64,000 nt of DNA from a bacterium. Its GTDB lineage: Bacteria; SAR324; NAC60-12. This document shows positions 30,270-52,442 of the stretch, piece after piece. Numbering within the stretch: the first letter of the stretch is position 1; every line of letters begins with the position of its first letter. The translations under genes and the position numbers were made by a program. The stretch is taken from the NCBI GenBank assembly GCA_965233585.1, contig CBDDTI010000746.1, positions 766,720 through 830,719 on the forward strand, written 5' to 3'. Below the pieces are notes generated by a model that ran no database searches, had not been told where the DNA came from, and saw only the letters and a program-made list of their open reading frames with translations.

Positions 30270-30344
30270 ACGACTGATTTGAAATAAAAAATTAACAAAA
30301 AATACAACAAAACAACAAAAAATCAGGAGCCACTGGGACTCATG

Positions 30345-30920: not shown

Positions 30921-31065
30921 CTTTTTTAAATCAAGTTTCACTTGCAAATTTAGGGAAGGTACACAAAACTTTCTGGTCTGACTGATGCCTTTGTCAAAAT
31001 TTATTAAAAAGTGCGTTCAGTTGCAATCAAGGTTGACATTTTAACATTCATCAGAGAAAAAAAGA

Positions 31066-34447: not shown

Positions 34448-35215
34448 CTAATATGATTCTATCGTGTGAATCATGCGTTTTTCTTTCTTTTGAAAAAGCA
34501 TTAAAAACTCTTGATTGTTGCTTTTTTTACCACGGACGGGAGACTCTGTTGAGGCAAGGCATTCCAAATCAGAATCACATGCAGATTGAATGGTCTGTTG
34601 GCAGACTCGTTGGTGGGTTTCCTGACTTTTAACTGTGCCTCCTTTGCCAACTTCCTGACGACCTGCCTCAAATTGAGGTTTCACTAAAGCAATCACATGT
34701 CCCCCTTCTTCTAGCAAAGCCGACACTTTGGGGAAAACCAACTGCAAAGAAATGAAAGAAACATCAATAACGACTAATTGAATGCTATCTTGAAGGTGAG
34801 CAGGTTCAAAATATCGGATATTCGTGCGTTCAATCACCACGACACGCGGGTCTTGCCTCATTTGCCAAGCTAGTTGACCATATCCCACATCAAGGGCAAA
34901 CACACGTTTTGCACCATGCTCAAGCAGACAATGTGTAAAACCACCTGTTGACGCACCCACGTCCAATGCTGTCAGATTTTTAGGAGAAAACTGGAAGTCT
35001 TTCAAGGCATGTTCTAGCTTTAAACCGCCACGGCTCACATAGGGATATTCCTGTGGAACAATCCTTAAATTTGCATCAGACGCCACAAGTTTACCTGCTT
35101 TTTCTTCTTTGTGATTTTCTATAAACACAGCACCTGACATGATGAGGGCTTGAGCTTTTTGTTTGGATTGGACAAAGCCCCGTTCTAACAACACTTGGTC
35201 AAGGCGTTTTTTCAT
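34448..35215 (-). CDS. tlyA: TlyA family rRNA methyltransferase
   Basis: S4 domain, YVSRGGLKL, DVGASTGGFT, DVSFISL, KPQFEAG. Confidence 0.95.
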   Translation of the reverse strand: MKKRLDQVLLERGFVQSKQKAQALIMSGAVFIENHKEEKAGKLVASDANLRIVPQEYPYVSRGGLKLEHALKDFQFSPKNLTALDVGASTGGFTHCLLEHGAKRVFALDVGYGQLAWQMRQDPRVVVIERTNIRYFEPAHLQDSIQLVVIDVSFISLQLVFPKVSALLEEGGHVIALVKPQFEAGRQEVGKGGTVKSQETHQRVCQQTIQSACDSDLECLASTESPVRGKKSNNQEFLMLFQKKEKRMIHTIESY

Positions 35216-36534
35216 GAAAAGAAGATACGAATGACGTCATTGTACGTGACTAACAGCATCAAAAGCACCAGTGTAGAAAATCCAACAAATTGCAGTTTTT
35301 CACGCACGGCAAGACTCATGGGTTTCCCAAGAACATATTCCACCCCAAGCAAAAAGATATGCCCACCATCAAGTGCAGGAATGGGTAGAAGGTTCAAGAT
35401 TCCAAGTTGCAAGCTAATCAATGCCATCACCATCAGCAAATCATTGACTCCACTCCTTGCCGCTTGCCCGATGTACGAACCAATTTGAATTGGTCCCCCA
35501 ACATGGTCCAAAGAAGCATTGCCTGTGACCACTGTCTTTAAAAAAGAAAAAATCCCAAGCGTTCCTGTTACAAGTTGGTTCGTTCCCATAGCAACAGACT
35601 CGCCCAAAGAATAAGACTGCACAGAGCTTTCCATCAGCGGGCTAATCCCAATCAAATACTGATTCCTTTGAGTATGAAAATAAGGTTTTAATGACAATAA
35701 TACTTCCTGACCATCACGACTGACTAAGACATCAATCTCTTTGGCTTCTTGAGTTTGTAAAGACTGTGTTGCTTGAATTTTAAATGCAATGTCATACCAA
35801 GAATCAACAGGTTGCTGATTGATTTGTAAGACGCGGTCATTGACCAAAAACCCTGATTTTTCAGCTGGAGAGTCAGGAGAAAAACTGCCGATGGTAGGAG
35901 CCACGTAATGTCCCCAATTATAGTCTTGGGGTAGTTGCAAACGGTCTTGGACTTCAATCAAGCGACTGTCTCGCTGAAGCACTACCTTGAAAGAATCTGT
36001 GCTGCCTTGTGGCAAAAGTTGGTATAAGTCTGACCATGTTTTGACGTCCTGACCTTGGGCTTGAACAATGAGGTCACCCACTTGAAAAGATTGACGTTGC
36101 ACAAAACTCCCTTCAGGAACAGTTGCAATCACAGGTGATTCATTGAGATATTTGGGAGTTTCTAGTCCTGACCAGTAAATGAAAGGCATCAAAAGAAAAG
36201 CAAAGGCAAGGTTCATCAAAGGACCTGCAACCAAAATATAAAACCGCTGCCATTTTGTTTTAGAGGCATAGTTACTGGGATTATCTGGTTCTTCATCGTC
36301 ACTGTTCTGTCCAAACAAACGGACGTAGCCCCCCAGTGGAATCCATGAAATACAATATTCTGTTGTCCCAAAACGTTCTGAATGGATTCTTTTACTCCAA
36401 ATTTTTGGAGGAAATCCTATTGAAAATTCATCAACGCGAACGCCAACATGCCTTGCCGCCAAGAAATGCCCCATCTCGTGAATAAAAACCAGAAATCCTA
36501 AAACAAGAATGAAAGTGATGATTGTCAGTAACAT
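35212..36534 (-). CDS. rseP: RIP metalloprotease RseP
   Basis: HEMGH, PLGGYV, two PDZ domains, NLLPIPALDGGH. Confidence 0.95.
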   Translation of the reverse strand: MLLTIITFILVLGFLVFIHEMGHFLAARHVGVRVDEFSIGFPPKIWSKRIHSERFGTTEYCISWIPLGGYVRLFGQNSDDEEPDNPSNYASKTKWQRFYILVAGPLMNLAFAFLLMPFIYWSGLETPKYLNESPVIATVPEGSFVQRQSFQVGDLIVQAQGQDVKTWSDLYQLLPQGSTDSFKVVLQRDSRLIEVQDRLQLPQDYNWGHYVAPTIGSFSPDSPAEKSGFLVNDRVLQINQQPVDSWYDIAFKIQATQSLQTQEAKEIDVLVSRDGQEVLLSLKPYFHTQRNQYLIGISPLMESSVQSYSLGESVAMGTNQLVTGTLGIFSFLKTVVTGNASLDHVGGPIQIGSYIGQAARSGVNDLLMVMALISLQLGILNLLPIPALDGGHIFLLGVEYVLGKPMSLAVREKLQFVGFSTLVLLMLLVTYNDVIRIFFS

Positions 36535-36713
36535 GATTTAAATTGAATAAAGGTCAGTATGAAAGCATTTTGGAATGCTTAAAATTGGTTTGTTGCTAAA
36601 AATCAAGAGGCAAAAGTTATTAAATCTTTAGTTATAGATTGTATAAATTATAGGTTTTACAAAATATTTTGAAAAATTTTCTTGCAGGTAAATATAATTT
36701 TGATGTCTATTCA

Positions 36714-37376
36714 TTATTGGATTTTTTTTAATAACATAAAACTTTCTGCATATTTACATCCGGCTATTGCACCACGAAAAGTTGCAAGAGCTTCTATATT
36801 TTTTATACTTCTCGGAAATGGATGATCTTCAATTTCATTTTTAAAAATTTGCATAATTTTTATTTTTTCATCTATAAATTGAGTAATATCTACAAATACA
36901 TTAGGTATAAAAGCATTTTCTTGACTACTCGGAGCAAACTCTGTTTCACTTAAAATCTCCATCATGTAAATAGTTTTCAAATAAGGGTATCTAAAAGATT
37001 TGCTACAACTAAAAGCAGCATCAAAAATTTTTCTATGATCAGAATGTATATCATGCTTAAATGGCAAATATAAAACGCTAGGTTCAATCTTTTGGATTAC
37101 TTTAGATATTTTATCAACAAGATATTTCATACTGTATTCATCAACACGCATAGTACTTAAACCTAAGTAATGCACACTGTCAAAATTATAAAGATCAGAA
37201 ACAATTTCAATCTCTTTTTGTCTGGTTTTAAAATTTTCACTATTTTTATCTTCTACTTGTGTAGCAATCAACCAATGAATATGATCACCATTTTTTCTGT
37301 GCTTCAGTAAAGTCCCACCAGCGCCCAAAGTTTCATCATCAGGATGTACAGCTAAAACCAAAATACTATGGCTCAT
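36714..37376 (-). CDS. PIG-L/LmbE family de-N-acetylase
   Basis: AVHPDDETLGAGG, DIHSDH, HPFPRS, AESF. Confidence 0.9.
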   Translation of the reverse strand: MSHSILVLAVHPDDETLGAGGTLLKHRKNGDHIHWLIATQVEDKNSENFKTRQKEIEIVSDLYNFDSVHYLGLSTMRVDEYSMKYLVDKISKVIQKIEPSVLYLPFKHDIHSDHRKIFDAAFSCSKSFRYPYLKTIYMMEILSETEFAPSSQENAFIPNVFVDITQFIDEKIKIMQIFKNEIEDHPFPRSIKNIEALATFRGAIAGCKYAESFMLLKKIQ

Positions 37377-38248
37377 AGATAATCTCCTATTTGAGGCAAC
37401 GGTTTAAACTCATGTTTTATAATTCTTATTGCTTTATCATAGCATTTCACTGTGATCATATCATTTTTAACTTCCAGCACTTTCCCATGCTCTATATTAG
37501 AAATTTGGCAATCTACTTCTTCAACTTGCCAAATACTAATTTCTTGACTCTTATATATCAAAAAAGCTCCAGGGTAAGGCTTATGTAATGCTCTTACTAA
37601 GTTATAAATGGCTCTACCAGTCATTCTAAAATCAATTAAACCATCTTTTTTAGATCGTTTACGCCATATATTAGACTGGCTATCATCTTGTATGACACTT
37701 TGATAATTATCATTTTGTAATTTGGGCAAAAAATCTTCTACTTGAGATAAGGCAATACGAGTCATTTTATCATACAAACTTTGTGCATTATCTTCATAAG
37801 TAATGTCAAAATCAACTTGAGACAATATACTTCCACTATCAGCACCTTCGTCCATTAAAAAAAACGTAGAAGCACTATTTTCCAATCCTAATACTAAAGC
37901 CCATATTAAAGGATGCCTGCCTCTATTTTTTGGTAATTTTGATGGATGATAACCAACTGTAGGAGCTATGTTAAGCACGTCTTTTGTAAGTAAAAAAGAC
38001 CAACCAAAACAAAATATGAAATCTGGCTTTAAAGATTGAATCCATTCAATATTTTCTTTATCATTGATATTGCCAATGTATTTATAAGGAATAGATACTT
38101 TATCACAAATGAAAGACAGATCACAAAAATCAGTATTAAAAGAAGATTTTTTTTTAGTACCAACTCCAACTATATTTGCTTCAAGATCAATTAATTTTTC
38201 TAAGATTTTTAAAGAAAATAAAACTGATCCTACAAATAATATTCTCAT
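37373..38248 (-). CDS. sugar N-formyltransferase (Fmt-like)
   Basis: GYHPSKLPKNRGRHP, DEGADSG, and Fmt C-terminal RALHKPYPGA. Confidence 0.88.
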   Translation of the reverse strand: MRILFVGSVLFSLKILEKLIDLEANIVGVGTKKKSSFNTDFCDLSFICDKVSIPYKYIGNINDKENIEWIQSLKPDFIFCFGWSFLLTKDVLNIAPTVGYHPSKLPKNRGRHPLIWALVLGLENSASTFFLMDEGADSGSILSQVDFDITYEDNAQSLYDKMTRIALSQVEDFLPKLQNDNYQSVIQDDSQSNIWRKRSKKDGLIDFRMTGRAIYNLVRALHKPYPGAFLIYKSQEISIWQVEEVDCQISNIEHGKVLEVKNDMITVKCYDKAIRIIKHEFKPLPQIGDYL

Positions 38249-38254
38249 TTTATA

Positions 38255-39424
38255 TTAAAAATTTATATCAAAAAATGATTTTTTTAAAATATTTTTTAAA
38301 TTGATAGACTTTAGAATTTTAACAACTTCCTCACTAGGATATTTGCTATTATCATAAGGATTTTTTACTTGATCAAGCGTTGATTTAAAATCTTTAGAAA
38401 ATGCTGTTTCAAATGCTTTTTTAATAGATAAAGTATCAGGTGTACAATCAATTACACTATCAGCTTTGATTCTACCTTTTTGCCGATCTCCCATATTTAT
38501 AGTTGGTATTTTAAAAGATGGAACTTCTATCAATCCACTAGAACTATTACCTATTACAGCATCTACAAATTGCAAAGTACTTAAATATCTCAATTGTCCT
38601 AAAGAAGTAAAAGCTATTGATTTATTCTTATGAATATCAACAAACTCATCTATCATCCTATTGATGATTCTACCATCAGTATCACTATTTGTTTTTGTAA
38701 AAATAATATGCGTTTTCTCTAAAGATTCGAGAACTTCTAAAAGATTAGCAAATTGTGTTTCAGCTGTGTTTTTTTCTAAAGTGACTGGATGAAAAGTGAC
38801 TAAAATATTTTTTTCAGCAAGTTTAAAATTGATACTCTTTTCAAACTCTTCTCTATTTAGAAGAGTTAACTTTTTAATATTTTCTATTCCCATTCCACCT
38901 ACATTAAAAACATGTTTAGGATTTTCACCTAACTGAATCACACGTTTTCTATAATCATGAGTTGCTACAAAATGCAAATGACTCATCTTAGTTAGACTAT
39001 GACGAATAGGTTCATCAATTAAACCTTGCGTAGCTTCTCCTCCATGAATATGGGCAATAGGAATGTTGGCTATCATTGCAGCACTAGCTGCTGCAAAAAT
39101 TTCATAACGATCTCCCAAAATGACAAGAACATTAGGTTTTAATTCCTCAAAGCATTCACTAAAAGAAATAGTTGCTAATCCCATAGATTTGGCTATTCCT
39201 ATTGCAGTATCTGAAGAAAGCAACATCTCTATTTTTTTAGAAATCAAAAAACCATCTTTCTCTATGACTCTATAAGTCATCCCAAATTCCGGACTTAAAT
39301 GCATTCCCGTAACAACTAACTGTAGTAATAAATGTTCGTCCTGATCTATAGCTTTGATTAACCAATACAACAAACCATATTCTGCTCTTGTACCGGTAAT
39401 GACACAAATTTTTTTAGGGATCAT
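38255..39424 (-). CDS. neuC: hydrolysing NDP-sugar 2-epimerase (NeuC/LegG)
   Basis: TGTRAEYGLL, TGMHLSPEFG, LGDRYE, HIHGGE, GNSSSG. Confidence 0.92.
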   Translation of the reverse strand: MIPKKICVITGTRAEYGLLYWLIKAIDQDEHLLLQLVVTGMHLSPEFGMTYRVIEKDGFLISKKIEMLLSSDTAIGIAKSMGLATISFSECFEELKPNVLVILGDRYEIFAAASAAMIANIPIAHIHGGEATQGLIDEPIRHSLTKMSHLHFVATHDYRKRVIQLGENPKHVFNVGGMGIENIKKLTLLNREEFEKSINFKLAEKNILVTFHPVTLEKNTAETQFANLLEVLESLEKTHIIFTKTNSDTDGRIINRMIDEFVDIHKNKSIAFTSLGQLRYLSTLQFVDAVIGNSSSGLIEVPSFKIPTINMGDRQKGRIKADSVIDCTPDTLSIKKAFETAFSKDFKSTLDQVKNPYDNSKYPSEEVVKILKSINLKNILKKSFFDINF

Positions 39425-40428
39425 ATCAAATCATCTTTTTGATAATCTTTTTTTGCCATACTGCCTACAATTTCATCCCAACACATAGGAGATATTCCGC
39501 TTCCTGGTCTTTTAACCGCTAATTTTTCTTCAGTCAGTAGTTCTCCTTTTTGAATTGAACAATCTGCAACAATAGATTTTCTTACAATTTTCATATTTGA
39601 GGTTTCACTCGGACTTGGTGCTTTGATACCATCACCTAAAGCAACTTCAATATTTCTTATAGCTTTGACCATTGCTTCCAATTCACTAGGTTCTAAAGAT
39701 GCTTTATGATCAGGTCCTTTCATATTGTTATCTAAAGTGAAGTGTTTTTCTATAACACTTGCTCCTAAAGTCACAGCAGCAATTGGTATCTCTATCCCTA
39801 AAGTATGATCACTATATCCATAGTTTACATCCAATGCTTTTCCTATCGTTACCATTGCTTTTAAATTGACATCTTCTATAGGAGTAGGATATTGAGTGTT
39901 GGCGTGTAGCACAGTGATATTGTTTTTATCTGTGCCAGCATTTGTTAAAATATCCAATGCCTGTTCTATTTCTCCAAGTGTTGCCATACCTGTAGATACA
40001 ATCACTTTCTTTTTCAAAGCACCTATTTTTCTCAAATAAGGGAGATTGGTGATTTCTCCACTAGGTATCTTAAATATCTCAAGTCCTAAATTTTGCAACA
40101 AATCTATACTATCTAAATCAAAAGGAGTGGATAGAAATAAGATATTTTTAGCTTGGCAATACCCAATTAATTCTTTGTGCATGTCTTCGTTAAGTTCCAA
40201 AGATTTGAGCATTTCATATTGAGATTGTCGTTGACCGGTAGTTTCATTCTGATAGGCAGCTTTTGGAGCATTTTTGCTGGCTATTGCATCAGCAGTAAAG
40301 GTTTGAAATTTGACTGCATTAGCTCCAACTTGTGTTGCTATATCAATGAGTTTCTTAGCAGTATCTAAACATCCATTGTGATTCACTCCTGCTTCCACAA
40401 TGATGAAGGTTTTGTTATAGGAAATCAT
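39421..40428 (-). CDS. neuB: nonulosonate synthase (NeuB/LegI)
   Basis: EAGVNHNG, KFQTF, KIPSGEITN, GYSDHT, EKHFTL, GPDH, and an AFP-like C-terminus. Confidence 0.93.
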   Translation of the reverse strand: MISYNKTFIIVEAGVNHNGCLDTAKKLIDIATQVGANAVKFQTFTADAIASKNAPKAAYQNETTGQRQSQYEMLKSLELNEDMHKELIGYCQAKNILFLSTPFDLDSIDLLQNLGLEIFKIPSGEITNLPYLRKIGALKKKVIVSTGMATLGEIEQALDILTNAGTDKNNITVLHANTQYPTPIEDVNLKAMVTIGKALDVNYGYSDHTLGIEIPIAAVTLGASVIEKHFTLDNNMKGPDHKASLEPSELEAMVKAIRNIEVALGDGIKAPSPSETSNMKIVRKSIVADCSIQKGELLTEEKLAVKRPGSGISPMCWDEIVGSMAKKDYQKDDLI

Positions 40429-42131
40429 TTTTGAATCAAGAAATCGTTGATAACCATATACTTTAAACCACTGTTAAAAAATGTAGTCAAAGCATCATCT
40501 GGAGAATTAACGATAGGTTCACCATTGATATTAAAGGAAGTGTTGAGTGCAATAGGAAAGTTAGAGATTTTACCAATTTCTAAAAGAATATTATAAAATT
40601 TCTCATTGTGTTCTTTTTTTACAGTTTGAAGTCTTGCAGAGCCATCAACATGTGTTATAGCAGGGAGTTTATGTCTGTAATCTAATCTAACAGGAACCAC
40701 CTTTTCCATAAAAAAACATTCATAACCTTCTTCTACATCAAAATATTCATGACTTTTTTCATAAATTATAGCGGGGGCAAATGGTCGATAACTTTCTCTA
40801 TATTTAATAATACTATTGATTTCATCTTTTATACCTTCTTTTGTAGGATCTGCAAGTATTGATCTATTACCTAAAGCACGTTCTCCAAATTCCATTTTTC
40901 CATCAAAATGAGCAACTATTTCTCCACTAGTAATTAATTCAGCAATAGTTTTCGGTGAATTGTCTAATAATTCATATTTAATATTTCTTTTTTGTAGAGA
41001 CTTTTCAATGCTTCTACTATTAAAAGAAGGTCCTAAATAGCTTGAATTGAATGAGTAATCTCTTTTTTGAGATTTAATACAGTGTGCTACATAAAGCGCT
41101 GCTCCTATACTATTACCGACATCAGATGGAGAATGAGAAATATACAAGTTGTTAAATGGAGTTTTTTCTAAAATTTTACCGTTATAAACTGAATTCATAA
41201 AAAATCCACCTCCAACTACTAAATTTTTAGATTGAGTGATTTTATACAAATGTTCAAGTGTATGAGAGGCTATTTCTTCAGAAACTATCTGCATGGCTTT
41301 TGCAACTTTTATTTTCCATTCATTAATCTCTTTATCTTTCATATAAAGATGACCTTCAAGCAAGTCTATTAGTTTATCAGTGTATAAATTAGGTTGTTCA
41401 ACTAAAGCTCCTTTGTAGTACGATTGATCTAGTACAAAAGTACCATTTTCAGTTAGCTCAAAGGTGCTTTTGATCTTATTTATGAAATCTTTACATTCTA
41501 TATTAAAAGCAGAAAGTGCCATAACTTTCCATTCATCATTATCGGGACGATAGCCTAGCATCTCTGTATAGGTAGCATAAAACATTCCTAATGAATTAGG
41601 TACGTTTTGTGTTAATAGAGTTGTTATATTATTTTCTTTTCCGATAGCTAAAGTGAGGCATTCCAGTTCTCCTTGATAATCTAAGGTACAAATGGCAGCT
41701 TCTTCAAATGGTGATAAAAAAAAAGCATTAGAAGCATGACATCTGTGATGTTGAACATAATAGATTGGAGGTATTTCGCTACCATTTGGAAAATCCATAT
41801 AAACCCAATCTTTAGGTGCTCTATCAACTAAATTAAACAAATTGTCTGTTATTGAATAAAAATAATCTTCTCTTTTAATTCTGTTAGCAGAAATAAAAGG
41901 ATTATATTTAACCCAAGCCGCCCCCGGATTCCAAGATTGTGCAATATAATCAATATCTCTTAATTTTAAGTGATTGACTTCTAAACAAAATCTAATTGAT
42001 AAGTTCGGAAATTTATTAGTTTGCTTTTGTCTGCTAAATCTTTCTTCAGGAGAAGCTGATATTATTTTTCCAGACTTATACAAAGCCGCGGAAGAATTGA
42101 TTTCCCCATGATTCAATCCAAGGATTAACAT
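40425..42131 (-). CDS. NodU/CmcH family carbamoyltransferase
   Basis: EERFSR, HHRCHA, EWKVMALS, EFGERALGNRSIL, RPFAP, HVDGSARLQ, NTSFN. Confidence 0.92.
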   Translation of the reverse strand: MLILGLNHGEINSSAALYKSGKIISASPEERFSRQKQTNKFPNLSIRFCLEVNHLKLRDIDYIAQSWNPGAAWVKYNPFISANRIKREDYFYSITDNLFNLVDRAPKDWVYMDFPNGSEIPPIYYVQHHRCHASNAFFLSPFEEAAICTLDYQGELECLTLAIGKENNITTLLTQNVPNSLGMFYATYTEMLGYRPDNDEWKVMALSAFNIECKDFINKIKSTFELTENGTFVLDQSYYKGALVEQPNLYTDKLIDLLEGHLYMKDKEINEWKIKVAKAMQIVSEEIASHTLEHLYKITQSKNLVVGGGFFMNSVYNGKILEKTPFNNLYISHSPSDVGNSIGAALYVAHCIKSQKRDYSFNSSYLGPSFNSRSIEKSLQKRNIKYELLDNSPKTIAELITSGEIVAHFDGKMEFGERALGNRSILADPTKEGIKDEINSIIKYRESYRPFAPAIIYEKSHEYFDVEEGYECFFMEKVVPVRLDYRHKLPAITHVDGSARLQTVKKEHNEKFYNILLEIGKISNFPIALNTSFNINGEPIVNSPDDALTTFFNSGLKYMVINDFLIQK

Positions 42132-42151
42132 ATATCTTTAATTATTATTTT

Positions 42152-42406
42152 TTAATTTACATTACTTGGTATATTGACTACTCTACCAACTAACCATTCA
42201 GAATGGTCAAACTATTGCTAATTAAACATTGGTAAAGTATTTATCAATTTCCAAATGGGTCTAGTTATCACACCATTTTCATTTGTCAATTTTAAAAATA
42301 GATCTCTTTGAGTTTTATTTTTTAAAATAATAGTCTGTAACCAATAGTTAAATTTTATATTTAGAGTCTCTTTTACAATTTTAACCTCTTTAAAATCTTT
42401 CAAAAA
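42152..42406 (-). pseudogene. decayed duplicate of the legC 3' end
   Basis: FLKDFKEVKIVKE...NYWLQTIILK...TRPIWKL...PMFN* aligns with legC ~42556-42822. Contains internal stops. Confidence 0.88.
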
Positions 42407-42449
42407 CATTGTTATTCACTCCTACTTCTACAATGATAAATGTTTCCAT
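42407..42449 (-). pseudogene. 5' fragment of a second neuB
   Basis: METFIIVEVGVNNN versus KTFIIVEAGVNHNG in the intact neuB. Confidence 0.8.
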
Positions 42450-42559
42450 TCAATTACTCTTAACAACTGTACCTACCTTCCTTAAAACACTAATTTGAGC
42501 ATATTCTTTTGATATAGTATTACTGCCACACCACCAATTAAAACAATAGATTCTTTCAT
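42450..42559 (-). pseudogene. internally deleted NeuD/PglD (LegH-type) acetyltransferase remnant
   Basis: ATG overlapping the legC TGA gives MKESIVLIGG (NeuD/PglD-like N-terminus). It is joined out of frame to a hexapeptide-like tail GSNTISKEYAQI...VGTVVKSN*. Confidence 0.65.
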
Positions 42560-43710
42560 AATATTACACCACTTGGAATGTTGACTGTTCTATCAGCTAG
42601 CCATTCAGCATGTTTTAAATTACCGCTAATGGATTGATTAAACATTGGTAAAGTACTCATCAATTTCCAAATGGGTCTAGTCATCACACCATTTTCATTA
42701 GTTAATTTTAAAAACAAATCTCTTTGAGATTTATCTTTCAAAATAATAGTTTGTAACCAATAGTTAGATTTTGTATTGAAAGGCTCTTCTACAATTTTAA
42801 TGTCTTTAAAATCTTTAAAAAACTCCTGATATTTCAAAAAGATTTTTCTTTTTTTCTCTAAGAATAAATCTAATTTTTCTAATTGTGCAACTAGTAAAGC
42901 GGCATTGAGATTAGGCATTCGGTAATTATATCCTATTTCATCATGGATATATTCATAACTGTGAGGTTGTTTAGCTGTGGTCGTCAAAAATTTGGCTCGT
43001 TTTGCTAAGTTTTCATCATCAGTTACAAGGCATCCGCCACCGCCTGAAGTGATAATTTTGTTACCATTAAACGAAAAAACTCCCATTTTCCCAAAAGTAC
43101 CTGTGTGTTGATCTTTAAAATAACTTCCTAAACTTTCAGAAGAATCTTCTACCAAAGTAAGATTCCATTTTTGACAAATCATTTGTATCTGATCTATTTG
43201 ACAGGAATGCCCAAAAGTGTGCATAGGTAAACATGCTTTCACAATTTTTCCACTTACTTTATGCACACATTTATTTTTAACTATCTTACAATGCTGTGTT
43301 AAAAAATCACTCAGTGCTTTTGGTGACAACCCCATAGTGATTTGATCCACATCTACAAATACGGGTTCTGCACCAACATAATTGATAGCATTACAAGTAG
43401 CCACAAAAGTTAATGGTTGTGTAATGACTAAATCATTTGCTCTGACACCTGCTAATAATAAAGCAATATGTAAAGCACTTGTTCCATTTACACATGCTAC
43501 AGCATAATAACTACCAACTTTTTTAGCTAATTTTTTCTCTAGTAGATCAACATATTCTCCAACAGTGGAAACAAAAGAACTATCTATACAATCTATAAGA
43601 TATTTTTTTTCATTTCCTATGAACTTTGGTTCATGCAAAGGAATAAATTCTTTGTTTTGATAAAGATTTTTTACAAAATCTATAAAATCTATAAATTCTT
43701 TTTGCATCAT
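42556..43710 (-). CDS. legC: LegC family (DegT/DnrJ) aminotransferase
   Basis: IPLHEP, NGTSALH, FSFNGNKIITSGGGG, GYNYRMPNLNAAL, TRPIW. Confidence 0.9.
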   Translation of the reverse strand: MMQKEFIDFIDFVKNLYQNKEFIPLHEPKFIGNEKKYLIDCIDSSFVSTVGEYVDLLEKKLAKKVGSYYAVACVNGTSALHIALLLAGVRANDLVITQPLTFVATCNAINYVGAEPVFVDVDQITMGLSPKALSDFLTQHCKIVKNKCVHKVSGKIVKACLPMHTFGHSCQIDQIQMICQKWNLTLVEDSSESLGSYFKDQHTGTFGKMGVFSFNGNKIITSGGGGCLVTDDENLAKRAKFLTTTAKQPHSYEYIHDEIGYNYRMPNLNAALLVAQLEKLDLFLEKKRKIFLKYQEFFKDFKDIKIVEEPFNTKSNYWLQTIILKDKSQRDLFLKLTNENGVMTRPIWKLMSTLPMFNQSISGNLKHAEWLADRTVNIPSGVIL

Positions 43711-43719
43711 TCAATATTT

Positions 43720-44479
43720 GGCACTGTTAAGTAATAAGTGATAGCTGATTATTCCGTTTTGCCATGAACAAAAGAACAGAATATTGTAATGCTTTAAGAG
43801 ACTTGCTGTAACATTTGGTTTTCCTTCTCATTCTTGCCAAGAAATGTCTCAAGAGAGAATTATACCCTTCTATCGTGTATGTTTCTGCCTTGGAACATGT
43901 ATGAATTTCTTTGGGAATGACTTGTTTGTAAGCCTTGCAGTGATCAGTCATCACCTGAAGAGGTTTTGTTTCCTTGACCTTGTCCCATAAATGCCTACAG
44001 GCTTTTGAGTCTCTGTTTCCAAGCACACAATTGATAAATTGCTTCCCACATCTATCAACAGCAATCCAGAGCCAGCAGTAGTTTTTTTTGACTGGATGTA
44101 GGTGTGCATTTCATCAATTTCCATAATTTCAATGTCTGTGTCCTTTCTTAATGCCTTGAGCTGTTCGCCAAAACTACAGACCCAATTATAAACTGAAACA
44201 TGAGAACAATTCAGCAAACGACCGATTGACCTGAAACCAAGACCCTCCAAATACAACTCTAATGCTCTTCTTTTGATCTGTGGTGAGATTTGACCACGAT
44301 AGGACTTGGTATATTGATAGTTGCAGGCATTGCAACGCCTCCTCGGTTTACCATATAAGAAACCATTCTTAACCGTCTTCTCACTTTCACATCTAGGACA
44401 CGACTTCATTGCTACACCATGACTATCAATTCAATTAAATGAACTTAATATCGCATATCACTTATAGTTTAACAATACC
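43720..44479 (-). mobile_element. IS1 family insertion sequence, 760 bp
   Basis: Imperfect terminal IRs GGCACTGTTAAGTAATAAGTGATA / GGTATTGTTAAACTATAAGTGATA. 8-bp target duplication CAATATTT at 43712-43719 and 44480-44487. Confidence 0.95.
43727..44409 (-). CDS. IS1 transposase InsAB (programmed -1 frameshift)
   Basis: Zn ribbon CPRC...CNAC, HTH, EIDEM. The A8C slippery site (44081-44089) shifts into KKNYCWLWIAVDR...TD...TYTIEGYNSLLRH. Confidence 0.92.
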
Positions 44480-45452
44480 CAATATTTTTATATTGAAGAT
44501 CATCAGGGTTTTTAATAAATCCTTCTTGAATGATTTTAATAATTTGTTGAATCCCATCAGGGACTGTTTTAGTAATTTTGAAATTGAGTTCTTTTTTTAT
44601 TTTCTCAAATGAAACTTTATAATCTCTAGGATCTTCTTCTTTATTTACATATTTAATTTGAGAATGGGGAAGTTGTTTTTTAATTTCATTGACAATCATT
44701 TGTTTTTGATAATTTTCTGAAGTATCACCTACATTATAAACATTAAACGCAACTAAATTTCTATCTGCTCTCAATACATTCATTACACTTCTGCAAAGAT
44801 CTACAACATGACAATAAGGTCGCCAAAACTGTTTACCAAATACGATTAGTTCTCTACCTAAAGCTAACTCTTTAGTAAATTCATTCACCGTTAGGTCAAA
44901 TCTAATTCGTGGTGATAGACCATAAACAGTAGAAAATCTTAAACAAGTTGGTTTTGTCGTACTATCTCTTTGTTTAGATAACAAAAACTTTTCAAACTCT
45001 ACCTTTGTTTCTGCATATAGTGAAATAGGTTTTAATTCTGAATCTTCATCTACATAAATTTTAGAATCTTTCATTCTTCCATAATTACTACAAGTAGAAG
45101 CAAAAATAAATTGTTCTACTCCTTCTTGATTGGCTATATTATAAGTCAGTTTTGCCCCTTCTGTATTCACTGCCTGCGTTAAACTTGGATTGACTGCACA
45201 AGCTGGGTCTCCAACAATAGAGGCTAAATGAACAACACTATTAACCCCTTCCATAGCTTTTATAACATCTTGTTCATTTCTAACATCGCCTTTAATAAAT
45301 TCAAAATGATGATGATTGAGTAATTCTAAAATAGACTCTCCACTAAAAGATAAATTATCTAATACTTTGACAAAATATTTTTCCTGAAGCAACAATCTTA
45401 CTAGAAGACTTCCAATATAACCAGCTCCACCAGTCACTAAAACTTTTTGCAT
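44469..45452 (-). CDS. NAD-dependent epimerase/dehydratase (extended SDR)
   Basis: TGGAGYIG, STCSNYG, YAETK. The last codons and stop are supplied by the IS end. Confidence 0.9.
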   Translation of the reverse strand: MQKVLVTGGAGYIGSLLVRLLLQEKYFVKVLDNLSFSGESILELLNHHHFEFIKGDVRNEQDVIKAMEGVNSVVHLASIVGDPACAVNPSLTQAVNTEGAKLTYNIANQEGVEQFIFASTCSNYGRMKDSKIYVDEDSELKPISLYAETKVEFEKFLLSKQRDSTTKPTCLRFSTVYGLSPRIRFDLTVNEFTKELALGRELIVFGKQFWRPYCHVVDLCRSVMNVLRADRNLVAFNVYNVGDTSENYQKQMIVNEIKKQLPHSQIKYVNKEEDPRDYKVSFEKIKKELNFKITKTVPDGIQQIIKIIQEGFIKNPDDLQYKNIGYC

Positions 45453-45490
45453 GTTTTTAAAGAAATTAATTGATAAGTATAAAAATATAT

Positions 45491-46192
45491 TTACTCCAAA
45501 TTGATATTATATTTATTCATAATAAATTGGGCAAATTGAAAATCTAACTCTGTATCAATATCAATAGATTTTTCTCTACTCATAATGAAAGCAAAGATAT
45601 TATCTTTTATGAATAATGTTCTTTCTTTTAAAAATCTTTTCATACAACAAATATAAATCGCCCCATTTAATCGGTAATAAGCTGGAATATCTTGGCTTCT
45701 TTTGTTAGTGAACTCATTTTTTACAAAATTTATCATGCTATGATTTTTAGGCAAAGTATGACACCACATAGGGCTGTGATTTTCTTCACATACTGATATG
45801 ACAGCGTCTGCTTGCTTGTCGTCTAAATACTCTATTGCTTGATCTATATCCTTTTGATTTCTTAATGGTGAAGTGGGTTGTAATAGAACGATGTAATCAT
45901 AACCACTATAAGTTTGAAGGACATGATGGATCACATCGGTTGTTAAACTTAAATCTGTTGCTAAATCACAAGGTCTTTTGATGACTTTGATATTATATTT
46001 CAATGCTTCTTCTAAAATCAAGTCATCATCACTTGTGACAACAAGATGATCTATGTATTGACTTTTAATACCTGATTCTATACTCCAAGAGATAAGAGGT
46101 GTACCACATAAATTTAATAAATTTTTATTAGGCAATCTTTTACTTCCTCCTCGTGCGGGGATAATTCCCAAAAAAGATTTTGAGTTAAACAT
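45491..46192 (-). CDS. neuA: CMP-nonulosonate synthetase (NeuA/LegF-like)
   Basis: IPARGGSKRLPNKN, LQPTSPLR, RSQD, NGAIY, SIDID. Confidence 0.9.
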   Translation of the reverse strand: MFNSKSFLGIIPARGGSKRLPNKNLLNLCGTPLISWSIESGIKSQYIDHLVVTSDDDLILEEALKYNIKVIKRPCDLATDLSLTTDVIHHVLQTYSGYDYIVLLQPTSPLRNQKDIDQAIEYLDDKQADAVISVCEENHSPMWCHTLPKNHSMINFVKNEFTNKRSQDIPAYYRLNGAIYICCMKRFLKERTLFIKDNIFAFIMSREKSIDIDTELDFQFAQFIMNKYNINLE

Positions 46193-47240
46193 TGTAAAGG
46201 CTATAATAGTCTTGATTAGCTTTTCTATATTCCTCTAACTGCCCTATATCTATCCAATACTCTCTAATAGGAAATGCTATAACTTTTTGCTGGAGAGATA
46301 TTAATTTCTCAAAAAGATTCGTCATATCATAAAACGTATTTTTTGGAATATATTGAATAACAGATGGTGATAAAATATAAATACCAGCATTCACAAAATA
46401 TTGTTGTGATGGCTTTTCTACAATAGAAGAGATTTCTATACCATTTATTTTGACTACTCCAAAAGGTATTTCAGATGTATATGTTCTTACACACATTGTG
46501 GCTATAGCATCTTGATTCAAATGATAGTCTAGCAAATGTTCAAAATTGACATCAGTTAATATATCTCCATTCATCACAAAAAAAGGTTGTGTAGGTCTAT
46601 CTTCTAAAAGACTTAATGCTCCTGCTGTTCCCATTTTTTGATCTTCTAAGGTATAAGTAATATTGACATCAAAATCAGATCCATCTTTAAAATATTCTTT
46701 AATAATTTCTGCTCTATAATTGACACATAAAATAATATTTTTGAAATTATTCTTTGAAAATTTTTCTATAATGTTTTGTAAAATAGGTTTTTCTCCTATT
46801 GGTAGCATAGGTTTTGGAACATTATGAGTTAATGGATATAGCCTCTTGCCGAGACCTCCTACCATCAATATCACTTGATTAGCTTTCTTTTCTTGTTTTA
46901 TTAAATCATCTAAAATTTCCAATCCTATCAATTTTAAAGATTCATTAACAATAGGAATTTGATGAATTTTATGAGTCAAACAAAGTTTAATAATATCTGA
47001 TTTTTGAGTGTTGACTTGTACATAAATTGGATGAGTAGAATAAACATCTTTGATGGAGCTATTCAAATCTTTTCCTTTTAAAATAGCTCTTCTAATATCT
47101 CCATCATTTAACGTTCCTAATAAAGTTTGATTTTGATCGGTAACTAAAACAATTTGTTTAGATGTGTTATCTATAATTTGGATAGATTCCAAAATCGTAG
47201 TAGATTCTTGAATAATGATGTCTTGGATATCTGTAATCAT
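46185..47240 (-). CDS. CBS-domain nucleotidyltransferase (PtmE/LegX-like)
   Basis: N-terminal CBS pair (DGDIRRAIL), GGLGKRLYPLT...PKPML, MNGDILT, YWIDIG. Confidence 0.88.
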   Translation of the reverse strand: MITDIQDIIIQESTTILESIQIIDNTSKQIVLVTDQNQTLLGTLNDGDIRRAILKGKDLNSSIKDVYSTHPIYVQVNTQKSDIIKLCLTHKIHQIPIVNESLKLIGLEILDDLIKQEKKANQVILMVGGLGKRLYPLTHNVPKPMLPIGEKPILQNIIEKFSKNNFKNIILCVNYRAEIIKEYFKDGSDFDVNITYTLEDQKMGTAGALSLLEDRPTQPFFVMNGDILTDVNFEHLLDYHLNQDAIATMCVRTYTSEIPFGVVKINGIEISSIVEKPSQQYFVNAGIYILSPSVIQYIPKNTFYDMTNLFEKLISLQQKVIAFPIREYWIDIGQLEEYRKANQDYYSLYNV

Positions 47241-47267
47241 TAATTAAAATGAAATCTGCACAAAAAA

Positions 47268-47924
47268 TCAAACCATCTGCTGTTCAGGTGGAATCATAGA
47301 TTTTCGTTCTAAAATAGTCAAGATTGTACTACATTCAATCCAAGCAGGCAATGAGATGATTTGATTAGACAATCCAGTGGGTTCTTTCCCAAATTGAAAA
47401 TGTTCAATGTCTTGCAAAGGGAATTGAAGCCCTCCAGATTTGAGATGTTTTAAAGGGCAAAACAAAGGGAACAGTGAAATCGTGTCATTGAGTTGTGCAG
47501 GAATTGTCCAATGCCCGTGAATTACCTCTATTCGTTCCGTTTCATTCCACATCACTATTTTCAGCTGTTTGGAATACTTATAGAGGACTTCTACATTTGC
47601 CAAAAACTGAGCATTCCGTAAACCTGTTGCCCCCAGTAAATCTACATGAACAATCTTATTTTTTAGGCAATAACAAACCGCTTTGTCTGCATCGTTTGTC
47701 TCAACATTGACAGAAGGAATGATGTTAAGATTCTGCAAATGTAGAGATGTTTCAAATGAATCCAAATCACCAATGATCACATCAGGAATCAGACCGTGCC
47801 GAAGTGCTGTGTTAGCTCCCCCATCTGCACAAATACGTAAATCAGCCTGCTCCCAAAAATGTTGAAGCAACACTTCATCAGGTGGCTCACCATTGCATAA
47901 AATCAATGCTTTTTGATAAATCAT
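47268..47924 (-). CDS. thiN: thiamine diphosphokinase
   Basis: ICADGGAN, IIGDLDS, GLQFPL, GLSN. The usual RxDH motif reads RNAQ. Confidence 0.85.
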   Translation of the reverse strand: MIYQKALILCNGEPPDEVLLQHFWEQADLRICADGGANTALRHGLIPDVIIGDLDSFETSLHLQNLNIIPSVNVETNDADKAVCYCLKNKIVHVDLLGATGLRNAQFLANVEVLYKYSKQLKIVMWNETERIEVIHGHWTIPAQLNDTISLFPLFCPLKHLKSGGLQFPLQDIEHFQFGKEPTGLSNQIISLPAWIECSTILTILERKSMIPPEQQMV

Positions 47925-48022: not shown

Positions 48023-48538
48023 ATGAAAAATAACACTCCCATTTCATTATTTCCATTTGTCAGTGTCCTGCTTTGCATGATTGGAGCATTGGCTTTGATT
48101 ACTGTGGCGATGCCCATTTCTGAACAAGCACAAGAAGAGCCAGAACAGCAGCAAAATTTAGAATTTCAATGGATTGGCGCCCCTGAATACGCTAGACCCT
48201 TCTTAATCCGTTGCTTTGAAAACTCCATTGTCTTTGACAATATTTTGCTTGGCACAACCCAGACATTGACTTTAAAAGAGTTGTTGAATGAATTACAAAC
48301 TCCAAGCACTTTCTCAAGATATTTAGGGCAGATTCAAATGCAAAATTTAGCATTCCAAAAACAACAAAATGACATTGAATACTATCCCATGCTGTTAGTT
48401 TATCCTAACTCTGCAAGAACTGTAGAAATCCTAGAATGGTTTTTAGAAAGTTCTGGTATTCAAAATATAGGGCTTGAACCCATGCTTCAAGAATGGAACG
48501 TCCCCTATCACACTTCCCTCACTCCAAAGAAAAATTGA
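48023..48538 (+). CDS. hypothetical single-TM protein
   Basis: N-terminal TM ISLFPFVSVLLCMIGAL. Confidence 0.6.
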   Translation: MKNNTPISLFPFVSVLLCMIGALALITVAMPISEQAQEEPEQQQNLEFQWIGAPEYARPFLIRCFENSIVFDNILLGTTQTLTLKELLNELQTPSTFSRYLGQIQMQNLAFQKQQNDIEYYPMLLVYPNSARTVEILEWFLESSGIQNIGLEPMLQEWNVPYHTSLTPKKN

Positions 48539-48543
48539 AAGTA

Positions 48544-49221
48544 ATGCGAACTAGACGAAAAAAATTAAGGCAAAACTCTACCTCAAATCTTGATGCCTTG
48601 ACTGACGTAGTTTCAAATAATGTTGGAATTTTTGTATTGCTAGCAAGCGCCTTGTCGTTATTCATGGTCATCAATCATGCAACAAACACAAAACAGAAAG
48701 AAGACACCCCTCCTCAAGACCTGATGAAACAGATTCTAATCCCGTGGACCAGACCCTCACAAAAATCACCTGTTCTGTTCTTGCTTGCAAACCAAAAAAT
48801 CACCTATCTCAATCGCCATAAAGCCCTTGAAAACATCGCAGAAGCCCTTGAAAACAGACCCCAAACCATCGGTCAAGACTCTAACCTTCAACGTGTTTAT
48901 AGGCTAGATTTTGAAAAGTATCAGATAGAATACTCAATTTACTCGCAATTTACACAATGTTTTTTATTTGAGCCAAAACCGCACCAGTCCAAAGACACCC
49001 AATATTTAGAGCAACAACTCATGGAGGTGATGAAAGACAAAAACGTCACAAGTTTCTATGCGTTTTTTTGGGTAGATTCCCAAAGTTTAGAAATGTTTAG
49101 AGAGGTCAGGCAATTTCTCTGGGATCAAAAGATTCAGGTTGGCTGGAGACCCATCAACAAAGAGACTGAAATGCGTTATTGCATTGGAGCAAACAATGGC
49201 ATCGGATTCCGTCCACAATGA
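48544..49221 (+). CDS. hypothetical single-TM protein
   Basis: Basic N-terminus, NLDALTDVVSNNVGI TM segment, C-terminal VGWRP. Confidence 0.6.
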   Translation: MRTRRKKLRQNSTSNLDALTDVVSNNVGIFVLLASALSLFMVINHATNTKQKEDTPPQDLMKQILIPWTRPSQKSPVLFLLANQKITYLNRHKALENIAEALENRPQTIGQDSNLQRVYRLDFEKYQIEYSIYSQFTQCFLFEPKPHQSKDTQYLEQQLMEVMKDKNVTSFYAFFWVDSQSLEMFREVRQFLWDQKIQVGWRPINKETEMRYCIGANNGIGFRPQ

Positions 49222-49231
49222 CTAAATGTCA

Positions 49232-50128
49232 CTAAATAGTTAGCAAATCTAAACCATTTTGAACCCTAGCGGCATTGACTGTGTTGAACATGAGCATCGC
49301 CACTGTCATCAATCCAACACCGCCTGGGACAGGTGTGATTTTTGAGCAAATTGGAAGCACCCCTTCAAAATCAACGTCTCCACAAATTCTATACCCCCTT
49401 TCACTTGTAGCATCATCTACCCGATTGATTCCAACATCAATGACAACCGTATGACTTTTGACCATTTCTTTAGCCACAAAATGAGGTTTGCCCATTGCGG
49501 CAACCAAAATATCTGCTTGCCTTGTCACAGATGCCAGAGCTTTTGTACGAGAATGACAAAGGGTGACTGTGCAATCAGTTCCTTTCTGAGAAAGCAATAA
49601 AGACAAAGGACGACCTACAAGCTGGCTTCGTCCCAAAATCACAACATGTTGACCTGCTAAATCTACGTCTAAATTCATCAGCATTTGCAACACTCCCAAA
49701 GGCGTACAGGGGACAAAGCATGCCTTTCCTGATGCAAGCAAACCCACATTAAACGGGTGAAGTCCGTCAACATCTTTTTGTGGAGAAATGGTTTGAATCA
49801 CTGAATCTGCATTAAGACCTGAAGGCAAAGGAAGCTGGCACAAAATCCCATGAATGCTTGGATTGTTGTTAAGACTGACAATTAATTCTTCTAGTTCTCC
49901 TTGAGTTGTCTTTTGACCAAGCTCAAAACTTTCAGAGCGAATACCTAGTGTTTCACATGTCTTGCGTTTGTTATGGACATAAATTTGAGAGGCAGGATCA
50001 TCACCAACTAAAATCACTGCCAAACAAGGCTTTATTCCTTTCTCCTTCAACAATTTCACTTCTTCCTTCACTCTCTGCTTCACTTGCTGGCTAGCAAGTT
50101 GTCCTGAAATGATTTTGTTTTGTAGCAT
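49232..50128 (-). CDS. folD: methylenetetrahydrofolate dehydrogenase/cyclohydrolase
   Basis: KDVDGLH, PCTP, GRS.LVG, TPVPGGVG. Confidence 0.97.
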   Translation of the reverse strand: MLQNKIISGQLASQQVKQRVKEEVKLLKEKGIKPCLAVILVGDDPASQIYVHNKRKTCETLGIRSESFELGQKTTQGELEELIVSLNNNPSIHGILCQLPLPSGLNADSVIQTISPQKDVDGLHPFNVGLLASGKACFVPCTPLGVLQMLMNLDVDLAGQHVVILGRSQLVGRPLSLLLSQKGTDCTVTLCHSRTKALASVTRQADILVAAMGKPHFVAKEMVKSHTVVIDVGINRVDDATSERGYRICGDVDFEGVLPICSKITPVPGGVGLMTVAMLMFNTVNAARVQNGLDLLTI

Positions 50129-50135
50129 CTAAATC

Positions 50136-50981
50136 TTAATCTCTGTTAAAAATACAATTTCCAAGGGTGTGTCCTTGCATTTCAATACGTTGTTGCAATG
50201 TTAATGAAAAACCAGCACGTTCTATTTGTGATTTGATTTGTTGCTGTGAGTAGTTAGATTGACTCAAATCCAACTCTATTAAGATTGATTTAAGACGTGA
50301 ATCTCGTAAAGTTTGCTTTGCACCCTCAATGATTAAATGCTCAATTCCGTCAACATCTATTTTTAAGTGATTGGGAAACGGTGGATTAAATACCCTGATA
50401 AACTCATCTATTGAATACCCAATCATGCTATGACGAAAAACTGTCTTAGCATTTTGATTGAGTGAATCAATGGTATCTACTTCTTCTCCAAAGTGATGTA
50501 ATGCTCCTCCTGCTTGAACATCCCCCATATTAATTGTACCTAACTCTACCTGATGACTAAAAGCGAGGCAAACTGGAGAGACAAGATGTTGAAATTGGTT
50601 CAGTTGAACGTTTTTAACTAGAATATGGTAATTGAAAGCAGAAGGCTCAAATGCAAAGACTTGATGTTCTTGTTTTGCCGCATAAAGTGAATAGACACCT
50701 ACATTTGCCCCAATATCATATAAAATCTGTTTTTTTTCAAATTGATTAATCCATTCAATCGTTTCAGGTTCTTTTGTCAATAAAGTCTGAGCACGCCATA
50801 GCGGTAAAATTTCAGGACAAAAAAATTGAATTTCTCCATGCGGTGTCTTTTGCCTTTTCACAGGGACTATTTCATTTTGTAATTGAGCAATAATGCGTAA
50901 CCTACGGTCTTCTTCTAAAAAACTAAGTGCAAATTTAATAACTCTGATAATCAAACAGCTGATTTGATGCAAAAAGGTCAT
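50136..50981 (-). CDS. FkbM family methyltransferase
   Basis: KEPETIEWI, DIGANVG, FEP, LKIDVDG. Confidence 0.88.
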   Translation of the reverse strand: MTFLHQISCLIIRVIKFALSFLEEDRRLRIIAQLQNEIVPVKRQKTPHGEIQFFCPEILPLWRAQTLLTKEPETIEWINQFEKKQILYDIGANVGVYSLYAAKQEHQVFAFEPSAFNYHILVKNVQLNQFQHLVSPVCLAFSHQVELGTINMGDVQAGGALHHFGEEVDTIDSLNQNAKTVFRHSMIGYSIDEFIRVFNPPFPNHLKIDVDGIEHLIIEGAKQTLRDSRLKSILIELDLSQSNYSQQQIKSQIERAGFSLTLQQRIEMQGHTLGNCIFNRD

Positions 50982-51044
50982 GTTAATGAAATGTTATAAA
51001 TGGGAGTAAAGTTCAAAGCAAACAAGATGTTCTAAGTTTGACTT

Positions 51045-52331: not shown

Positions 52332-52442
52332 TTGTAATCCTCTGTGCCTTTGATAAAGCATACTAGCTTATACTAGATTGAGATAAATAAAAGTGCTTTT
52401 TAAAAAAGACAGGTAGATTTTTAGCAATTCCAGTTTGAAAAA

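Follow-up and report, generated by a model that had tools for sequence, protein, structure and literature searches.

In bacteria and archaea, nonulosonic acids occupy the outermost tips of the cell surface, and their N-substituents decide how phages, antibodies and lectins recognize them. The GDP-linked legionaminic acid (Leg) pathway of Campylobacter jejuni proceeds through PtmE, LegB, LegC, LegH, LegG, LegI and LegF. In the accessible sections of the account of Halorubrum sp. PV6, 5-N-formyl-Leg is described together with a leg cluster in which a predicted formyltransferase adjoins legG/neuC (PMC6137143). The available part of a preprint on Candidatus Kuenenia stuttgartiensis describes CMP-nonulosonates that carry one formylated and one free amine, together with a leg-like cluster that encodes a deacetylase and a formyltransferase (bioRxiv 10.64898/2026.04.20.719630). 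PseJ is the N7-formyltransferase of Pse5Ac7Fo (PMC11040635; structure 6ci2). Published work already covers the leg core, N-formyl-Leg and the idea of a deacetylase/formyltransferase pair. Here we analyze a stretch of 64,000 nucleotides, hereafter the window, from a SAR324 bacterium (GTDB lineage Bacteria; SAR324; NAC60-12; GenBank assembly GCA_965233585.1, contig CBDDTI010000746.1, positions 766,720 to 830,719 of the forward strand). A low-GC gene island in the window may encode a nucleotide-linked legionaminic-acid-type pathway giving a 5-N-formyl-7-N-carbamoyl nonulosonate, a reading that we put forward tentatively. The gene-level facts given below are solid, and the chemistry is what we infer from them.

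The island lies at 36535-47267 on the minus strand, between the host genes for thiamine diphosphokinase (TPK) and RseP, and contains ten biosynthetic genes. Its genes have a GC content of 28-35%, versus 39-43% in the flanks (TPK 39%, RseP 42%). The features are as follows, in the direction of transcription.

47268-47924, host-like thiamine diphosphokinase; its stop is 27 nt from the first gene of the island
46185-47240, minus strand, CBS-domain sugar-1-phosphate nucleotidyltransferase, PtmE-like (Pfam CBS and NTP_transferase, PF00483, 161 bits)
45491-46192, minus strand, CMP-nonulosonate synthetase, NeuA/LegF-like (Pfam CTP_transf_3, PF02348, 93 bits)
44469-45452, minus strand, extended short-chain dehydrogenase/reductase (SDR) of "type 2" in the LegB position (by motif and TIGR04180 score)
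43720-44479, minus strand, IS1-family insertion sequence (IS; by NF033558, inverted repeats and 8-bp repeats)
42556-43710, minus strand, intact LegC-family aminotransferase (TIGR04181, 548 bits, cut-off 420)
42453-42559, minus strand, possible internally deleted legH (by position and weak LegH-like similarity)
42152-42418, minus strand, decayed duplicate of the 3′ end of legC (by direct repeat, TIGR04181 and alignment)
40425-42131, minus strand, NodU/CmcH/TobZ-type carbamoyltransferase (CT) in the LegH slot (Pfam Carbam_trans_N and Carbam_trans_C)
39421-40428, minus strand, NeuB/LegI-like nonulosonate synthase (TIGR03569, 504 bits, cut-off 400)
38255-39424, minus strand, NeuC/LegG-like hydrolysing NDP-sugar 2-epimerase (TIGR03568, 490 bits, cut-off 236)
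37373-38248, minus strand, ArnA-N-like formyltransferase (Fmt) of a PIG-L-paired subfamily (Pfam Formyl_trans_N/C)
36714-37376, minus strand, PIG-L/LmbE-family de-N-acetylase (PF02585, 72 bits)
35212-36534, host rseP, 179 nt beyond the last gene of the island

Each of the ten island genes is an open frame of full length and retains its conserved motifs, and 4-nt overlaps are found at CT/neuB, neuB/neuC and Fmt/PIG-L. The Pfam and NCBIfam searches bear out what the initial annotation of this DNA had described: a leg-like core (CBS-nucleotidyltransferase, legC, neuC, neuB, neuA), a NodU/CmcH-type carbamoyltransferase with both Pfam domains that lies between legC and neuB, with a 4-nt overlap at the start of neuB, and a formyltransferase and a PIG-L protein at the end of the operon. 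The genes it listed are all present; it had missed the IS1 element and the SDR gene, whose product is not a canonical LegB. For the CBS-nucleotidyltransferase and the CMP-sugar synthetase, no NCBIfam equivalog model was reached at its cut-off, and the Pfam domains are present. The best solved relatives of the former are sugar-1-phosphate guanylyl- and uridylyltransferases, and the latter scores 148 bits with TIGR03584 (PseF), under the cut-off of 206.

In the proposed pathway, the CBS-nucleotidyltransferase would activate a hexosamine-1-phosphate, the type-2 SDR would make the 4-keto sugar, and LegC would make the 4-amine. Without LegH, the TobZ-type CT would cap this 4-amine with a carbamoyl group, using carbamoyl phosphate and ATP, and the resulting ureido group would be the future N7 substituent. 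NeuC would then release and 2-epimerize the sugar, and NeuB would condense it with phosphoenolpyruvate. The PIG-L deacetylase would remove the N5-acetyl group, Fmt would put a formyl group in its place, and the cytidylyltransferase would form the CMP-sugar. The expected free sugar would be a 5-formamido-7-ureido compound, C11H19N3O8, with a calculated mass of 321.117 Da. A formylated and carbamoylated nonulosonate instead of a di-N-acetyl one, as the initial annotation had proposed, is the most economical reading of these genes.

The CT contains a Kae1-like N-terminal and a YrdC-like C-terminal domain and is full length (Carbam_trans_N, PF02543, 140 bits; Carbam_trans_C, PF16861, 207 bits). 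Residues 12-568 align to 7xb6 (E 5e-86), the other solved relatives are NovN, GdmN and TobZ, and the alignments to solved family members cover the full length, with E values from 5e-86 to 7e-67. The protein fails the NodU equivalog model NF041651 (131 bits, cut-off 1000). We collected CT relatives at 18 loci from species-representative genomes, and at 16 of them the relative is 49-62% identical to the window CT. These 16 loci come from bins of Elusimicrobia, Pseudomonadota, Bacteroidota, Gemmatimonadota, Actinomycetota, Nitrospinota and SAR11. The best CT homologue among 40 genomes of the same family or order is 37% identical and the closest relatives lie in other phyla, which argues that the island was acquired horizontally. 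The same DNA is present in two samples of one study (four public contig runs).

The neighbourhoods of these CT genes are alike across phyla. Of 162 open reading frames (ORFs) listed at these loci, a Pfam scan covered 109 + 34, leaving out the CT genes themselves and the 12 ORFs of locus L009. The CT gene is adjoined by neuB in nine of the 16 loci (L010, L012, L013, L016, L017, L018, L019, L022 and L024), and in five others (L011, L014, L015, L021 and L023), where neuB is not in view, by a DegT aminotransferase. Four of these five contain an SDR or a PglF-like dehydratase (not seen in L023), and four contain a PglC-like phosphoglycosyltransferase (not in L015). The CT of L020 adjoins a CBS-nucleotidyltransferase on a 2.6-kb contig; at L009, whose 12 ORFs were outside the Pfam scan, tblastn found no such neighbour. 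CT-bearing nonulosonate and bacillosamine clusters are therefore widespread, and the window is one member of a common undescribed variant. The initial annotation had called it the best candidate for an undescribed system in the window; with relatives at 16 loci in many phyla, it does not stand alone.

We consider it likely, from this gene context, that the CT acts on a sugar of the leg-type pathway. It could instead be a passenger that serves another glycan, for example a polymer hexose modified after assembly in a NodU-like manner. NodU and core-heptose carbamoyltransferases do act on assembled oligosaccharides, and several CT loci also contain glycosyltransferases and methyltransferases. No single glycosyltransferase is constant among them, however, and the constant neighbours of CT across phyla are aminotransferase, dehydratase and synthase genes. 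The window island contains no glycosyltransferase, and its CT is translationally coupled to neuB, which together make the passenger role very improbable. At L012 (15573-17336) and L013 (17319-19076), both from Pseudomonadota bins, a NodB-type (CE4) deacetylase and an S-adenosylmethionine-dependent methyltransferase are encoded on the opposite strand, and together with CT they echo the NodB/NodS/NodU trio of Nod-factor tailoring.

The gene that is missing points to the acceptor. The window CT occupies the LegH slot between legC and neuB, and an intact legH elsewhere in the genome, a possibility raised by the initial annotation, was not found: in the 92.5%-complete assembly there is no PglD/NeuD-type gene, PF17836 (PglD_N) has no match, and TIGR03570 (NeuD/LegH) gives six partial hexapeptide matches, the best at 61 bits against a cut-off of 160.8. 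A second NeuB locus, on contig C295, has no acetyltransferase. Among the ORFs scanned at CT loci, a PglD-type acetyltransferase is found at one locus only. As a control, we searched 88 genomes of the window's phylum, eight of which, the window's genome included, encode LegC over the cut-off. PglD_N is present in six of the seven others, the one miss being a 59%-complete bin, and adjoins legC in three of them. The control clusters have the canonical order SDR-LegC-LegH-NeuB-NeuC and are without Fmt, PIG-L or CT. These control genomes are few and related, and they give a pattern, not a statistic.

The constant partners of CT make NDP-2-acetamido-4-amino-2,4,6-trideoxyhexose, and the enzyme consistently missing is the one that 4-N-acetylates this sugar; because of this, we place the action of CT on the 4-amine. 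A bacillosamine-type intermediate has only N4 and O3 free, and in a nonulosonate O3 serves as the ring oxygen. From these considerations, the case for N7 as the carbamoyl acceptor comes close to even. With slightly more reserve, we suggest that a TobZ/NodU-fold enzyme may replace LegH/PglD by N-carbamoylating the C4 amine of NDP-4-amino-4,6-dideoxy-HexNAc.

The other two tailoring genes belong together in many genomes. A metagenome scan for Fmt relatives gave 71 loci, 41 of them with an Fmt at 41% identity or more. A PIG-L gene lies directly downstream of Fmt in 31 of the 33 loci with at least 650 bp of room, and of the 29 loci with room on the other side, 26 have NeuC immediately upstream. 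The Fmt/PIG-L pair is thus a widespread conserved module of leg-type clusters, usually alongside LegH, and not a remodelling specific to the window operon, as first described. Both legC and neuB are in view at eight Fmt loci (L048 and L049 are near-duplicates), and the slot between them contains a gene of ~207 residues in six of the eight; the five that were scanned with Pfam are PglD_N plus hexapeptide acetyltransferases. At L031 and L035 the slot holds a second formyltransferase. As a separate N7-acylating enzyme fills this slot, N5 is left to the Fmt/PIG-L pair. The window Fmt matches Formyl_trans_N (64 bits), Formyl_trans_C (67 bits) and the ArnA N-domain (E 3e-31), and the motifs H-P-D-D-E and H-S-D-H of the window PIG-L protein align to those of solved deacetylases. 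The swap of the N5 acetyl for a formyl group is, on these grounds, somewhat probable; on Leg, deacetylation and then formylation would lead to 5-N-formyl-Leg, the sugar of Halorubrum sp. PV6. The second formyltransferases of L031 (975-1889) and L035 (5290-6174) are of the canonical N-x-H type and stand in the LegH slot besides Fmt/PIG-L; a di-N-formyl nonulosonate is therefore predicted for these two loci.

Several points weigh against a 5-formamido-7-ureido product. Every characterized or solved CT relative retrieved in the structure search (TobZ, NovN, GdmN) is an O-carbamoyltransferase, and a review, in its accessible text, attributes the carbamoylation of amines to the transcarbamylase fold, which is unrelated, and hydroxyl acceptors to the CT fold (PMC6022934). 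The free-amine nonulosonates in the available part of the Kuenenia preprint are CMP-activated, so N7 need not be capped. As for the missing acetyltransferase, the CT sample consists of 16 loci only; L023 has a PglD-like gene together with CT; L012 has a hexapeptide transferase of 198 residues, without the PglD N-domain, 7.7 kb from CT and beside a second DegT gene; and the absence of PglD_N over the cut-off from all five CT-cluster genomes searched concerns metagenome bins of unstated completeness. The window Fmt is without the catalytic Asn, with G-Y-H-P in place of N-x-H and the His and Asp retained, and because of this loss even formyl transfer by it is putative. Finally, by motif and model score the window SDR is not a canonical LegB, and the IS that separates the SDR gene from legC may have a polar effect. 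With regard to the formyltransferase motif, G-[YFL]-H-P is found in all 46 paired-Fmt sequences of at least 33% identity, the window's included, and N-x-H in 19 of 20 more distant formyltransferases.

The first of these points leads to a close rival of N7-carbamoylation, which we nevertheless judge to be the less likely of the two. In it, the CT would O-carbamoylate a hydroxyl group (O4 or O8, or O9 if the SDR keeps the C6 oxygen) and N7 would stay a free amine, giving an isomer with the same formula. All named solved CT relatives being O-carbamoyltransferases favours it, as do the hydroxyl acceptors ascribed to the fold in the accessible text of the review (PMC6022934), the CMP-nonulosonates with a free amine in the available part of the preprint (bioRxiv 10.64898/2026.04.20.719630) and the presence of both PglD and CT in L023. 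It leaves unexplained, however, the near-constant absence of LegH/PglD from CT-bearing clusters and the placement of CT in the LegH slot. The bacillosamine-type clusters L011, L014 and L021 would offer it O3 only, which is normally the glycosylation site. L013 pairs CT with a canonical LegB (507 bits), which leaves no primary hydroxyl; a general rule of 9-O-carbamoylation was rejected for this reason. The Kae1/TsaD branch of the CT superfamily moves a carbamoyl unit onto an amine. We keep N7-carbamoylation as the working proposal.

The sugar backbone depends on the SDR. In other clusters, 11 SDRs that hold the LegB position have the motif S-T-S-E in common, and the three of these tested all pass TIGR04180 (501-529 bits). 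The window SDR fails this LegB model, with 86 bits against a cut-off of 475, and shares with four relatives (L107, L016, L014 and L011) the motif S-T-C-S-N, which has no Glu; the three relatives tested fail the model as well. Its best solved relative is 6vo6 (178 bits), which may be Cj1427. In the accessible text of two papers, Cj1427 is a GDP-heptose C4-dehydrogenase and performs no dehydration (PMC10680097, PMC7949155). If the type-2 SDR merely oxidizes C4 and is not a 4,6-dehydratase, the C9 hydroxyl would be kept, and the sugar would be a 5,7-diamino-3,5,7-trideoxy-nonulosonate and not a legionaminic acid. The motif, the failure of the type-2 SDRs where canonical ones pass, and the relation to 6vo6 speak for such a C4 oxidase, which is compatible with the other readings and in our view unlikely, though to be taken seriously. 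In L011 and L014 the type-2 SDR takes the slot in which L021 has a PglF-like 4,6-dehydratase, and in L107, from a related genome, it heads an otherwise canonical SDR-LegC-LegH-NeuB-NeuC cluster. Because of these positions, we favour a dehydratase-equivalent role for the type-2 SDR.

How the CT came to lie behind legC can be read from a 424-nt joint that separates the two intact genes. Positions 42152-42418 repeat the final ~265 nt of legC, with a mean column identity of 88%, and the two copies form a direct repeat of 187 nt at 89%. The duplicate carries an 8-nt and a 1-nt deletion, both of which break the frame in the alignment, and a 63-residue ORF in the joint matches positions 275-336 of TIGR04181. 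This duplicate marks a recombination joint. Its stop codon lies 20 nt ahead of the CT start, and since the legC remnant ends at CT, the donor cluster of CT already had legC followed directly by CT. This legC-CT order without legH matches that of other CT clusters, and the loss of legH in the window therefore looks like the native state of the legC-CT cluster type. The initial annotation had taken the acetyltransferase that normally follows legC to be reduced to a remnant. LegH is indeed missing, but the 63-residue ORF is the decayed legC copy, and a true legH stub is only suggested. A 25-codon ORF begins on the legC stop, and its N-terminus (10 codons) resembles PglD/LegH proteins; a stretch of 27 residues in a different frame is similar to the PglD/LegH C-terminus, with a best E value of 0.24 that is not significant in a search space of 520 nt. 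In this search, six LegH-like proteins were compared with the 520-nt joint, and weak similarity to five of them was seen. A legH remnant after legC is plausible by position and not demonstrated.

The second disturbance of the island is the IS1-family element at 43720-44479, which is flanked by 8-bp direct repeats at 43712-43719 and 44480-44487. NF033558 matches it in two frames (95 and 70 bits, each under the 100-bit cut-off for the whole protein), and its terminal inverted repeats are imperfect (31 nt at 81%). A two-frame transposase, inverted repeats and a target duplication of 8-9 bp are the marks of the IS1 family, and all three are found here. Removing the element and one repeat copy restores an ATGA-type stop/start overlap of the SDR gene and legC, which indicates that the IS parted two translationally coupled genes. 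In the SDR its effect is confined to the last residue, and legC is intact. The 12-Mb genome has 33 near-full copies of this element of ~760 bp, at 98.8-100% identity (38 blastn hits), and the IS family is therefore expanding in the genome. In public contigs the depth of the IS is ~20-fold that of its flanks, and no IS-free allele of the locus was seen in the four contig runs. In runs of a second organism the IS is present and the island is absent.

CT is seldom combined with Fmt/PIG-L in the samples, and the combination in the window was visibly produced by recombination. Fmt/PIG-L is found in none of the 18 CT loci, and a CT homologue in none of the 71 Fmt-related loci. Of the search for other clusters with NodU, Fmt and PIG-L and no legH, which the initial annotation had recommended, the full combination thus came to nothing, while the CT clusters are mostly without PglD/LegH. 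The island is a mosaic, probably assembled by recombination of two cluster types and later hit by the IS. A harsher view is that this mosaic is damaged and makes no finished sugar, the loss of legH and the IS having broken or silenced the pathway, and that the presence of CT, Fmt and PIG-L is accidental. The legC duplicate and the legH stub do show imprecise recombination, the IS family is expanding, the gene combination is rare, no glycosyltransferase or Maf gene is found within the island, and no MptE/Maf match is found in the genome. Against these stand ten full-length open genes with conserved motifs, the 4-nt overlaps kept at three gene junctions, an IS that costs the SDR one terminal residue and legC nothing, and the legC-CT order without legH that is seen in other CT clusters. 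We regard a damaged pathway as improbable, and an intact one leading to the 5-N-formyl-7-N-carbamoyl sugar continues to be our proposal.

Outside the island, the genes folD, an FkbM-family methyltransferase and a TviB-like UDP-GlcNAc 6-dehydrogenase (49232-52361) lie 2-5 kb away and have a host-like GC content. The closeness of folD, a source of formyl donor, to an island with a formyltransferase is probably due to chance. Neither Pfam nor NCBIfam gave a match for two overlapping plus-strand ORFs (171 and 242 residues; 48023-49221) that lie in the gap from the island to folD, and four successive minus-strand ORFs (317, 857, 132 and 200 residues; 26347-30947) have no Pfam match at E 1e-5. The window also contains two PD-(D/E)XK "transposase" (PDDEXK_2) genes, at 10644-11603 and 63248-63859, and a gene for an ankyrin-repeat protein of 415 residues at 55969-57216. 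Elsewhere in the same genome there is a second ulosonic-acid-type cluster of a different kind, L098 (G000:C295:236500-256400). It encodes a short NeuB (278 residues, no SAF domain), a xylose-isomerase-like TIM barrel, two short-chain dehydrogenases, a family-8 polysaccharide lyase, a cytidylyltransferase and a GT92-like glycosyltransferase. The pairing of NeuB with AP_endonuc_2 in L098 recurs in the CT loci L017, L018 and L024.

Within the literature searched, with subscription journals and unsearchable manuscripts outside its scope, neither nonulosonic acids nor bacillosamine are tied in any paper to a carbamoyl group or to a carbamoyltransferase of the NodU/TobZ type. The statement of the initial annotation that it knew of no characterized carbamoylated nonulosonate agrees with this. 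A carbamoyl substituent (ureido or carbamate) is, within the same literature, outside the described repertoire, and the genes suggest that it is produced in many phyla. If the acceptor is an amine, this would be a new reaction type for the TobZ/NodU family, and LegH/PglD would gain a non-homologous functional replacement. Ureido sugars would then arise from leg- and bacillosamine-type pathways in many phyla and form a new class of N-substituents on sialic-acid-like sugars. The leftover legC fragment, for its part, shows directly how tailoring modules swap between clusters.

Compared with the C. jejuni Leg pathway, the island shares the CBS-nucleotidyltransferase, LegC, the NeuC- and NeuB-type enzymes and the CMP-transferase, and its order SDR-legC-(slot)-neuB-neuC is that of canonical leg clusters in the same phylum. 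It differs in having no LegH and an SDR outside the LegB family, and in the additional CT, PIG-L deacetylase and formyltransferase. The Halorubrum sp. PV6 cluster, whose sequences were not compared with ours, is similar in that, in the accessible sections of the report, a formyltransferase lies beside legG/neuC and the formyl group is on N5. Unlike the island, it has, in those sections, a named NeuD-like acetyltransferase and no deacetylase or carbamoyltransferase (PMC6137143). The Kuenenia cluster, likened here by its description and not by enzyme subfamily, has a deacetylase, a formyltransferase and no named LegH; the available part of the preprint does not mention a carbamoyltransferase, which sets it apart from the island (bioRxiv 10.64898/2026.04.20.719630). 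PseJ (6ci2) has, like the window Fmt, a formyltransferase fold that acts on a nonulosonate amine, and the match is weak (E 3e-7); the window Fmt differs in belonging to the PIG-L-paired subfamily, in having Gly for the catalytic Asn and in acting most likely on N5. Like the PglF-PglE-PglD-PglC pathway, the Bacteroidota loci L011, L014 and L021 have a dehydratase, a DegT aminotransferase and a PglC-like transferase, here beside CT and without PglD, whereas the window continues to a nonulosonate. The window CT has the same two-domain architecture as the O-carbamoyltransferases TobZ, NovN, GdmN, NodU and CmcH, and its similarity to the curated NodU model is in the range of 28% or lower. It differs from the TobZ/NodU family in its setting, nucleotide-sugar clusters without the N-acetyltransferase, and possibly in having an amine as acceptor, which would be a novelty for the family.

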